A stretch of DNA of 64,000 bases from Escherichia coli O157:H7 (GCF_013167455.1 NZ_CP038328.1); one strand, 5' to 3'; shown: positions 16,171 to 17,520, numbered from the stretch's first letter. Numbers and translations: made by a program. Notes: generated by a model not told the origin, from the sequence alone.

Positions 16171-17520
16171 ATGTTAATTAATAAAAGCAACGGATTTAAC
16201 GCTAGCGCAGTTTGGGGTAGTGGAAGTTATAATGAAAATAAATCTTCTAAACACATGGAGCTACTAGCTCATAGTATTGTAAAATTAATTTGTAAGGAAG
16301 CTGCATCAGAGACGTATCGCGGTGCTCTTGAAATTTTACAAAAAATAATGTCTGAATGTATATATCAAGAAGGCAACGCCTTTGTCATTATGGGAGCTGG
16401 GGAACAATTAAAACGTATTAAATATGATGTTGATGAAAATAACTTAAAGGTATTCAACGTACACTTTGATAATAATGAAGTGTTAGTTACTGATGGTGAG
16501 CCTGACGTAGTATGTTTAAGCAAGCAGGTCTGGGAAAATCTTCTCATTAAATTAAAACCGGAGATCAAGGAAAATGTGGCTTCTGAAGTTCATAAATCAG
16601 CGAATAAAGGTGAGATTGAGCAATTAGTTGAATGGTCTAAAAGAAATGAACAAACCCTTTTCGATAATATAATAAAAAGTGATTTTCATGTTGGTTCACT
16701 TAAGCCAGGTAGTATGAATGGTGTTATTTTAGAAATGCCACCAAATGTCTGTATGGAACCACGTAATTCATATGAAAACAAAATAGATGAGGTTTCATCT
16801 TTGTCAGAGTCAGAGGAACACCCCATAGATATTCAAAAAATAACAGATGCGTTTGTGAAGGAGTTCAAGGGGATATTATTTGATAAAAATGGAAGATCTT
16901 CAGAGCTTCTGTTTAATTTTTATGAATGTTGCTATACGTTTTTACCAAGAGCGCAGCCTCAAGATAAAATCGATAGCTATAATTCAGCACTGCAAGCTTT
17001 TTCCATCTTTTGTTCATCTACGTTGACACATAATAATGTAGGCTTTGATTTCAAATTATTTCCAGAAGTCAAGCTGTCTGGAGAACATCTTGAAACGGTA
17101 TTCAAATACAAAAATGGCGATGATGTCCGGGAGATAGCCAAAATTAACATTACTCTCCAAAAAGAAGAGGGTGGCTTATATAATCTACGTGGATTGGATT
17201 TTAAGGGATGCTTCTTTTCTGGACAGAACTTCAGTAACTATGATATTCAATATGTGAACTGGGGAATGTCATTGTTTGATGTTGATACTCCGTGTATTTT
17301 TAATACGCCTGCTAACCATGAGAGTTATGAAAAATCATTAAAACCTGTAAGCGAAAACGGTTTAAATGGAGTCTTATCTGATCGTAATAAAAAAATAAAA
17401 ATGATCACGGGTGTGGCACCATTCGATGATATTTTATTTATGGATGATGACTTTGATGATAACTCCCCTGAGGATGCTCCCATTGAGAATAGTCCTGTTG
17501 TGAATAGTCCTCTTGTATAA
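16171..17520 (+). CDS. Hypothetical 449-aa protein with pentapeptide-repeat-like C-terminal segment (at the position of ypjC in K-12)
   Basis: ATG with GAGGA Shine-Dalgarno 7 nt upstream; AT-rich; C-terminal region LRGLDFKGCFFSGQNFSNYDIQY resembles pentapeptide repeats. Confidence 0.5.
   Translation: MLINKSNGFNASAVWGSGSYNENKSSKHMELLAHSIVKLICKEAASETYRGALEILQKIMSECIYQEGNAFVIMGAGEQLKRIKYDVDENNLKVFNVHFDNNEVLVTDGEPDVVCLSKQVWENLLIKLKPEIKENVASEVHKSANKGEIEQLVEWSKRNEQTLFDNIIKSDFHVGSLKPGSMNGVILEMPPNVCMEPRNSYENKIDEVSSLSESEEHPIDIQKITDAFVKEFKGILFDKNGRSSELLFNFYECCYTFLPRAQPQDKIDSYNSALQAFSIFCSSTLTHNNVGFDFKLFPEVKLSGEHLETVFKYKNGDDVREIAKINITLQKEEGGLYNLRGLDFKGCFFSGQNFSNYDIQYVNWGMSLFDVDTPCIFNTPANHESYEKSLKPVSENGLNGVLSDRNKKIKMITGVAPFDDILFMDDDFDDNSPEDAPIENSPVVNSPLV

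Follow-up and report, generated by a model that had tools for sequence, protein, structure and literature searches.

The window, the whole 64,000-nucleotide stretch of Escherichia coli O157:H7 DNA that we analysed (GCF_013167455.1, NZ_CP038328.1), carries the gene ypjCB downstream of the tRNA gene ileY (Table 1). The first-pass annotation, made from the sequence alone, had placed an AT-rich gene for a 449-residue protein here, and this assignment is borne out: the open reading frame lies on the plus strand, starts with ATG, comprises 449 codons plus stop and has a GC content of 34.6% (GC3, 28%). The product is a soluble, acidic protein with a computed mass of 50.7 kDa and a pI of 4.8. Sequence analysis finds neither a transmembrane segment nor a signal peptide in it, the maximum 19-residue hydropathy being 0.69. 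Upstream of the Shine-Dalgarno sequence lies a promoter-like element, and the count of promoter-like sites in the region does not exceed shuffle expectation.

The product matches the NCBIfam model NF050179 (YpjCB family protein) with 952.2 bits, against a curated cut-off of 650 bits, with residues 1–449 aligned to profile positions 1–465. Pfam finds PF17612 (DUF5507) at residues 1–160 (E = 6e-87) and PF17621 (DUF5508) at residues 195–449 (E = 3e-163), which is the order of the YpjCB family, DUF5507 at the N terminus followed by DUF5508. In megablast, O157-type genomes are 100% identical over the stretch and carry the annotation ypjCB there; the exact 449-residue protein occurs on at least 1000 contigs in public collections. 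The frame is an intact allele of ypjCB, a single-gene unit confined to E. coli, and public annotation already records the gene, the family name and the K-12 split.

The tRNA neighbour was correctly recognized as ileY in the first-pass annotation; its anticodon is CAT, 3 of its 76 bases differ from those of K-12 ileY, and ypjCB starts 751 bp downstream of it. The low-GC stretch that holds ypjCB begins at about 12.3 kb, just after glaH, and contains, in order, ygaQ, ileY, ypjCB, a pinH remnant and ypjA, with glaH flanking it on one side and an ssrA-linked prophage on the other. From ygaQ to ypjA it is an old low-GC variable segment. The YpjCB family and this locus share the same surroundings, with ileY upstream and the pinH remnant and ypjA downstream.

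Table 1. Features of the ypjCB locus, in window coordinates.
Feature	Position	Strand	Evidence
tRNA-Ile(CAU), ileY	15344–15419	+	ARAGORN, Rfam, annotation in identical genomes
Promoter-like TTGTCT-16-TATAGT	16087–16114	+	Consensus match only
Shine-Dalgarno GAGGA, 7 nt before ATG	16159–16163	+	Sequence; conserved in K-12 by alignment
ypjCB coding sequence	16171–17520	+	ORF list, NF050179, annotation in identical genome
N-terminal part, aa 1–160, DUF5507 (K-12 YpjC)	16171–16650	+	Pfam PF17612
Codon 161, CAA (Gln) here, TAG in K-12	16651–16653	+	DNA alignment with K-12
Variable linker, aa 161–214, predicted disordered	16651–16812	+	Alignment; AF2 pLDDT 22–29
C-terminal part, aa 195–449, DUF5508 (K-12 YpjB)	16753–17517	+	Pfam PF17621
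Pentapeptide-repeat-like run, aa 337–371, 7 pentads	17179–17283	+	Register, shuffles, sub-threshold PF00805, Qnr alignment
Acidic C-terminal tail, aa 417–449, net charge -10	17419–17517	+	Charge, alignment

At the same place, K-12 MG1655 has two annotated genes, ypjC (b2650, 483 bp, 160 aa) and ypjB (b2649, 792 bp, 263 aa). The DNA alignment is free of frameshifts, and the K-12 split is an in-frame amber codon; ypjB is the continuation from the next methionine (Met195). The K-12 gene is thus cut by TAG at codon 161, whereas the gene in the window is intact. The first-pass annotation had stated that the lack of a repeat-family match together with clear identity to K-12 ypjC would speak against its reading of the protein; no repeat-family match reaches threshold (see below), and the identity to K-12 is plain: 81% of amino acids over the YpjC part and 89% over the YpjB part, with shared synteny and a full-length YpjCB match. 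These values are low for alleles of a single species, and the O157 allele is an unusually divergent one. YpjCB occurs in three length forms of 449 aa, 457 aa (the stop read through, as in K-12) and 484 aa (a 35-aa linker insertion after residue 209), and hundreds of contigs carry each of the intact forms.

HMMER, run exhaustively against 1.84 billion representative proteins, returned 43 matches, all of them close relatives or fragments except one (P0163, E = 3.6e-4). We rejected the latter as a distant relative: it is a four-fold PA14-type repeat protein whose likeness to YpjCB is confined to one peptide (GCYYSDQNFTN against GCFFSGQNFSN), a chance resemblance multiplied by repetition. A scan of 100,044 species genomes, one for each species, gave two matches only, both on short contigs: an 86%-identical copy on a 2.8-kb contig (37% GC) of a Planococcaceae MAG, and a 291-bp contig with a coverage of 0.59 in an Arthrobacter assembly. 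Both were set aside as carriers outside E. coli, being probably E. coli contamination. No record in the phage collection encodes ypjCB. The plasmid collection holds four matches, all from E. coli, three of them 4.8–4.9-Mb records filed as plasmids and the fourth a partial match on a 245-kb plasmid. In PHROGs the YpjCB family is present only as phrog_30093, which is annotated without a function. Judged by these searches, ypjCB is strictly confined to E. coli.

Within the species the gene is far from universal. Among 5426 complete E. coli genomes, 3017 (~56%) contain at least 80% of the interval 15300–17700, in which both ileY and ypjCB lie; about 44% lack the locus. In other strains the segment is truncated at many different end points, and often glaH alone remains. 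Carriers with conserved synteny include K-12-type, commensal (IAI1), dog and uropathogenic strains.

The gene had also been described as lying at a tRNA-associated accessory site, which is half right: in one strain, ileY is the attachment site of a P4-like integrase element, with homology to the window resuming at base 30 of the tRNA, but in that strain ypjCB lies outside the element. Where ypjCB is missing from a sampled genome, the tRNA finds only one match, at 92–93% identity, presumably to ileX, and the segment is cut back; ileY and ypjCB therefore mostly travel together, usually gained or lost jointly as parts of one variable low-GC segment. The tRNA reads AUA codons. ATA makes up 10 of the 30 isoleucine codons of ypjCB, or 22 per 1000 codons, a frequency well above the E. 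coli average, and reaches 24–27 per 1000 codons in the neighbouring ygaQ ORFs.

Substitution patterns differ strongly along the protein. By the Nei-Gojobori method, applied to four intact alleles plus K-12 with its stop codon masked, overall dN/dS is about 0.5–0.9 at a gene-wide dS of 0.09–0.21. The N-domain has a ratio of 0.7–1.5 and the linker one of at least 1; the values are 0.23–0.8 over residues 215–336, 0.1–0.34 over residues 337–378 and 0.4–1.5 in the tail. Between intact alleles, pN/pS of the N-terminal part is 0.7–0.8, which is indistinguishable from neutral, as is the linker. Over residues 215–378, by contrast, the nonsynonymous-to-synonymous ratio is 0.29 between O157 and the P0121 allele (Fisher p = 1e-6) and 0.52 in a second comparison (p = 0.015). 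Significant purifying selection is limited to this C-terminal core. Both the alignment and dN/dS place most of the conservation in the C-terminal domain and the tail motif PFDDILFMDDDFDD, and in the family alignment the pentad run (see below) and that motif are nearly invariant.

Disruption of the gene is nonetheless frequent: in the small set of genomes inspected it was inactivated independently at least four times, by the amber codon of K-12, a frameshift in IAI1, a frameshift and a stop in D1, and an IS5 insertion in W2-5. ypjCB is a real gene, weakly constrained and often discarded. An overall dN/dS of 0.5–0.9 and frequent pseudogenes would also be expected of a gene in decay.

The predicted layout of YpjCB begins with a polar, disordered N terminus and a fast-evolving N-domain; a disordered linker, whose length varies, joins these to a C-terminal domain that is better conserved, and the chain ends in an acidic tail, likewise disordered. 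Some 28 residues at the start are polar, rich in serine and asparagine, and disordered according to AF2 pLDDT; for the rest of the N-terminal part AF2 predicts an alpha/beta domain with low confidence. The AF2 models derive from very shallow alignments and are weak. The full-length model, built on a 15-sequence alignment, is unusable (pLDDT 39.8), and Foldseek with it against the PDB was meaningless (TM about 0.09). A crop of residues 215–400 fared better, the best model having a pLDDT of 66 and a pTM of 0.66, although only one of five models reached that pLDDT. It consists of three helices and a three-stranded meander followed by isolated short bridges, which the DSSP string places at residues 337/338, 343, 348, 357/358 and 363. 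The bridge pairs 337/338–357/358 and 343–363, each 20 residues apart, would fit stacked coils of four pentads.

These bridges fall in or next to the stretch for which the first-pass annotation had pointed out a five-residue periodicity (LDFKG CFFSG QNFSN YDIQY). The periodicity is present at residues 342–361, and the run is longer than described, extending over residues 337–371 as YNLRG LDFKG CFFSG QNFSN YDIQY VNWGM SLFDV. The centres of the seven pentads are L, F, F, F, I, W and F, with D or N just before the centre in five of the seven. YpjCB thereby shares the pattern (x)(D/N)(L/F)(x)(G/x) with pentapeptide-repeat proteins (PF00805; Qnr, PDB 3PSS), and in an in-register alignment of its pentads with the initial coils of AhQnr, 10 of 25 core residues are identical. 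At position i-2 the seven pentads have Y, L, C, Q, Y, V and S, of which Y, L, Q and Y seem bulkier than is usual in pentapeptide-repeat proteins. Among 20,000 shuffled versions of the protein, 6.5% had a hydrophobic run of at least seven pentads and 0.01% had such a run with at least five D/N, figures that come from a test designed after the pattern had been seen.

Profile searches do not place the protein in the pentapeptide-repeat family. The Pfam search reported nothing for PF00805 on the full protein at E ≤ 10, and the matches of excised pieces stay below the gathering cut-off of 20.2 bits, with 15.6 bits (E = 0.012) and 13.2 bits for fragments and 12.9 bits for the domain crop. A sub-threshold match to PF00805 is present in six of nine alleles, and PF13576 likewise matches below threshold in the same register. 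Tandem A(D/N)LXX units form long arrays in PF00805 proteins, with 8 units in the Pfam model and tens in known members; YpjCB has only seven. The segment would supply at most about 1.75 coils, compared with about 10 in NleL.

Comparison with known structures gave a similar picture. The whole protein had no match among PDB sequences, and the family profile had a single one among all PDB sequences, to Qnr 3PSS over residues 338–371, in register, with E = 8.9. A 60-residue fragment matched antibody VH domains (E = 0.1–0.5) and, behind them, Qnr (E = 0.29). The VH resemblance (LQ.E.GGL..L.G....C..SG..F..Y...V) was discarded as chance because it falls short of significance and antibody variants number in the thousands in the PDB. 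Structure prediction, suggested in the first-pass annotation as a check, yielded a crop model that could be searched, and no pentapeptide-repeat structure was among the matches of the fold searches with it; with Foldseek, the crop model had no match among viral structures at E ≤ 0.001.

On this evidence the pentad stretch is a run inside the C-terminal domain and, by profile score and length, not a pentapeptide-repeat domain. A short pentapeptide-repeat-like coil is plausible, with about equal weight for and against it, and membership in the pentapeptide-repeat family and in its effector group is not supported. The description 'reminiscent of pentapeptide-repeat effectors' accordingly keeps one half, a weak likeness in the same register to pentapeptide-repeat proteins, and loses the other, the link to effectors.

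The acidic C-terminal tail that had been noted is confirmed, with a net charge of -10 over the last 33 residues. It is predicted to be disordered (AF2 pLDDT about 30), and 14 of the 15 aligned alleles keep its core motif PFDDILFMDDDFDD. The FDDILFMDDDFDD motif and the pentad centres are candidate partner-binding residues. The tail may recall SSB C termini, W-acidic kinesin motifs, LIR motifs and WASP acidic regions, and the protein was also looked over by eye for catalytic motifs; we give no weight to any such resemblance.

Published observations on the locus come from K-12. DNA enriched by Hha there includes ypjC/ileY, and ypjC is upregulated 9-fold in biofilm cells (PMC2408971). In mixed biofilm, ypjC is up 2-fold, and its deletion leads to more colonization by EAEC 55989, whereas overexpression of ypjC is without effect (PMC3646849). 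The relevance of these phenotypes to the intact protein is uncertain, because the gene is split in that strain and because overexpression had no effect. Papers on gallium evolution and on GalR mention ypjC only incidentally. A listing of ypjB as a 'membrane protein' (PMC7414163) is unsupported, the sequence having no hydrophobic segment.

We tentatively favour, at somewhat less than an even chance, a reading in which YpjCB is a soluble, acidic island protein, silenced by H-NS/Hha, whose conserved C-terminal module binds a partner. The pentad run would most likely form a small beta-solenoid-like coil of one to two turns, packed on the three-stranded sheet, and this coil, together with the hydrophobic-acidic motif PFDDILFMDDDFDD of the tail, may form a protein-binding surface, in which case YpjCB would act by partner binding and not as an enzyme. 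The basis of the binding-module idea is the conservation pattern and the predicted disorder only. H-NS/Hha on the AT-rich DNA would keep expression normally low, and translation may lean on the neighbouring AUA-reading tRNA. Any advantage of the gene would be conditional, since many lineages have lost or broken it, and might lie in biofilm or competition settings.

The main competitor to partner binding is decay. An old horizontally acquired frame that is drifting to loss, with its conserved C-terminal stretches reflecting limited time or recombination, would be in keeping with an overall dN/dS of 0.5–0.86 and an N-domain, linker and tail indistinguishable from neutral, with at least four independent inactivations among few genomes inspected, with a locus missing from about 44% of complete genomes through many deletion end points, and with a homologue found nowhere else. 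Such drift is harder to reconcile with significant purifying selection on residues 215–378 (0.29, p = 1e-6; 0.52, p = 0.015), with a pentad run and a tail motif that are nearly invariant despite a gene-wide dS of 0.09–0.21, with intact forms on hundreds of contigs each, and with a frame that stays open in stop-prone AT-rich DNA across alleles differing at 12–14% of nonsynonymous sites (about 25% of residues); we consider it unlikely, if still a serious contender. Decidedly less probable is that YpjCB is secreted or translocated by the LEE or ETT2 type III system, with the S/N-rich N terminus as export signal and with the short coil and acidic-hydrophobic tail engaging a host protein, loosely like PipB2 with its repeat domain and LFNEF motif at the C terminus. 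The 28 N-terminal residues are polar, S/N-rich and predicted to be disordered, with a net charge of +2, and alleles retain this composition rather than the sequence; like many virulence genes, ypjCB consists of AT-rich island DNA to which Hha/H-NS binds; its N-domain and linker evolve fast; and, beyond the repeat-like segment, the disordered tail carries short hydrophobic-acidic motifs. NleL/EspX7 of O157:H7, SopA and PipB2 are likewise proteins of enteric bacteria with an unstructured N terminus and a repeat region (PMC3013003, PMC5570926), and PipB2 has a functional short motif near its C terminus, within the last 30 residues (PMC5570926). The likeness ends at the repeat itself, which in NleL (residues 171–371) and in the pentapeptide-repeat domain of PipB2 (residues 150–350) covers about 200 residues and forms a long quadrilateral beta-helix, against about 35 residues in YpjCB (PMC3013003, PMC5570926). 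Homology to NleL, SopA or PipB2 is not detectable, none of the three was returned by the PDB sequence searches, and YpjCB has no HECT-like domain; the exhaustive HMMER search gave no homology to any effector family, and our literature search found no paper reporting secretion of YpjCB. The gene is, moreover, shared in synteny by K-12-type, commensal IAI1, dog and uropathogenic strains, which we take to be without LEE.

Mobile elements offer a further reading, in which YpjCB is conflict cargo serving phage defence, anti-defence or exclusion, its variable N-domain sensing a changing target and its conserved C-module signalling or binding. The YpjCB family is held in PHROGs (phrog_30093) and was therefore collected from prophage-type regions, and the gene adjoins a serine-recombinase remnant, lies near the ssrA prophage hotspot, and combines a fast-evolving N-domain with mosaic alleles. 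Yet it matches no PADLOC model (PADLOC-DB 2.0, 0 families at E ≤ 1), is encoded by no phage record, sits outside the integrase element at ileY in the strain that carries one, and has neither a partner gene nor an enzymatic motif, which makes this reading very unlikely. Equally doubtful is the broader proposal of an E. coli-specific interaction protein that is exported toward the host or aimed at phage or competitor proteins; here the tiny, nearly invariant solenoid-like coil and the PFDDILFMDDDFDD tail would capture a conserved target, and the fast-changing N-domain and linker would reflect an arms race. If true, YpjCB would be a new effector or conflict family without relatives elsewhere. Least probable by far, and one that we hardly credit, is a true pentapeptide-repeat DNA mimic like Qnr or MfpA whose mimicry the acidic tail extends: the only PDB match of the profile is to Qnr over residues 338–371 and the protein is acidic (pI 4.8), but that match is not significant (E = 8.9), PF00805 stays below threshold, seven pentads make fewer than two coils and, going by the known architecture of Qnr and MfpA, would be far too short to imitate a DNA duplex, and the rest of the protein is predicted to be helical or sheet and not solenoid.

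The finding is largely ordinary, because the periodic stretch resembles pentapeptide-repeat proteins weakly and the gene was already known. It does bear on how the locus is studied: the K-12 phenotypes in the literature come from a broken allele, and functional work needs an intact one such as that of O157. Its value is otherwise descriptive, in delineating a gene of E. coli only, with constraint in a short, putative coil and a tail motif, that stands beside the AUA-reading tRNA on which its codon usage may depend.

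The truncated autotransporter gene ypjA/EhaD lies downstream of ypjCB (the 449-aa ORF that is split into ypjC and ypjB in K-12), and its breakpoint is where homology to the unbroken 4587-bp ypjA of strain 2017C-4109 ends. The last ~750 bp of the 2017C-4109 gene are absent from the entire window, and the DNA downstream of it in that strain, which includes IS1203, appears to be present inverted at 40796-37409. Taken together, the end of homology, the missing 3′ portion and the inverted DNA with IS1203 suggest a rearrangement mediated by an IS. Immediately 3′ of the breakpoint are three successive, slightly overlapping ORFs, the first two of which encode tyrosine recombinases; the third (543 aa) has no match in Pfam. 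Annotations of this region in related O157 genomes give a DNA-binding protein and a DUF6387 protein along with two tyrosine recombinases.

Features of the window flanking ypjCB, and RNA elements elsewhere in it
Feature	Position	Strand	Remarks
ygaQ-type alpha-amylase family gene	12531-14783	−	split; two ORFs, 335 and 412 aa
122-aa ORF	17775-18143	opposite to remnant	overlaps serine recombinase remnant
Serine recombinase remnant (K-12 pinH)	17881-18048	+	between ypjCB and ypjA; both ends gone
ypjA/EhaD autotransporter gene	18456-22397	+	truncated; breakpoint at 22291
Three ORFs	23020-27174	+	403, 441 and 543 aa
STnc100 adjoining anti-GcvB sRNA AgvB	34980-35232		Rfam match
IS3-type ALIL frameshift pseudoknot	40345-40461		Rfam match
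tmRNA (ssrA)	45521-45883		Rfam match
Phe leader	63643-63768		Rfam match

The 122-aa ORF that overlaps the pinH remnant also has no match in Pfam. Upstream of the tRNA gene ileY, the ygaQ-type gene matches ypjCB in both AT-richness and ATA-richness. In a genome identical over the stretch, the annotation marks it as a pseudogene that carries an internal stop, and it is unbroken in the annotated records of strains UPEC69, KE47 and D1.

Fragments of ypjCB also occur in assemblies assigned to other bacteria, namely a Planococcaceae metagenome-assembled genome (contig DEQI01000374.1) and an Arthrobacter agilis assembly, in which the fragment sits on a 291-bp contig with a coverage of 0.59. Both probably reflect E. 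coli contamination of public assemblies. Within ypjCB itself, the peptide ITLQKEEGGLYNLRGLDFKGCFFSGQNFSNYDIQYV (aa 324-363, window 17140-17260) has antibody VH framework 1-CDR1 sequences as its top PDB matches; with non-significant E values of 0.1-0.5, this likeness was taken as chance.

Finally, in assembly GCA_037493395.1 (locus L003, 5691-7204), ileY is interrupted by a P4-like integrase element; of the tRNA gene, just the 47 nt at the 3′ end are left beside ypjCB. The position of this element inside the gene indicates that in some strains ileY is a live attachment site.
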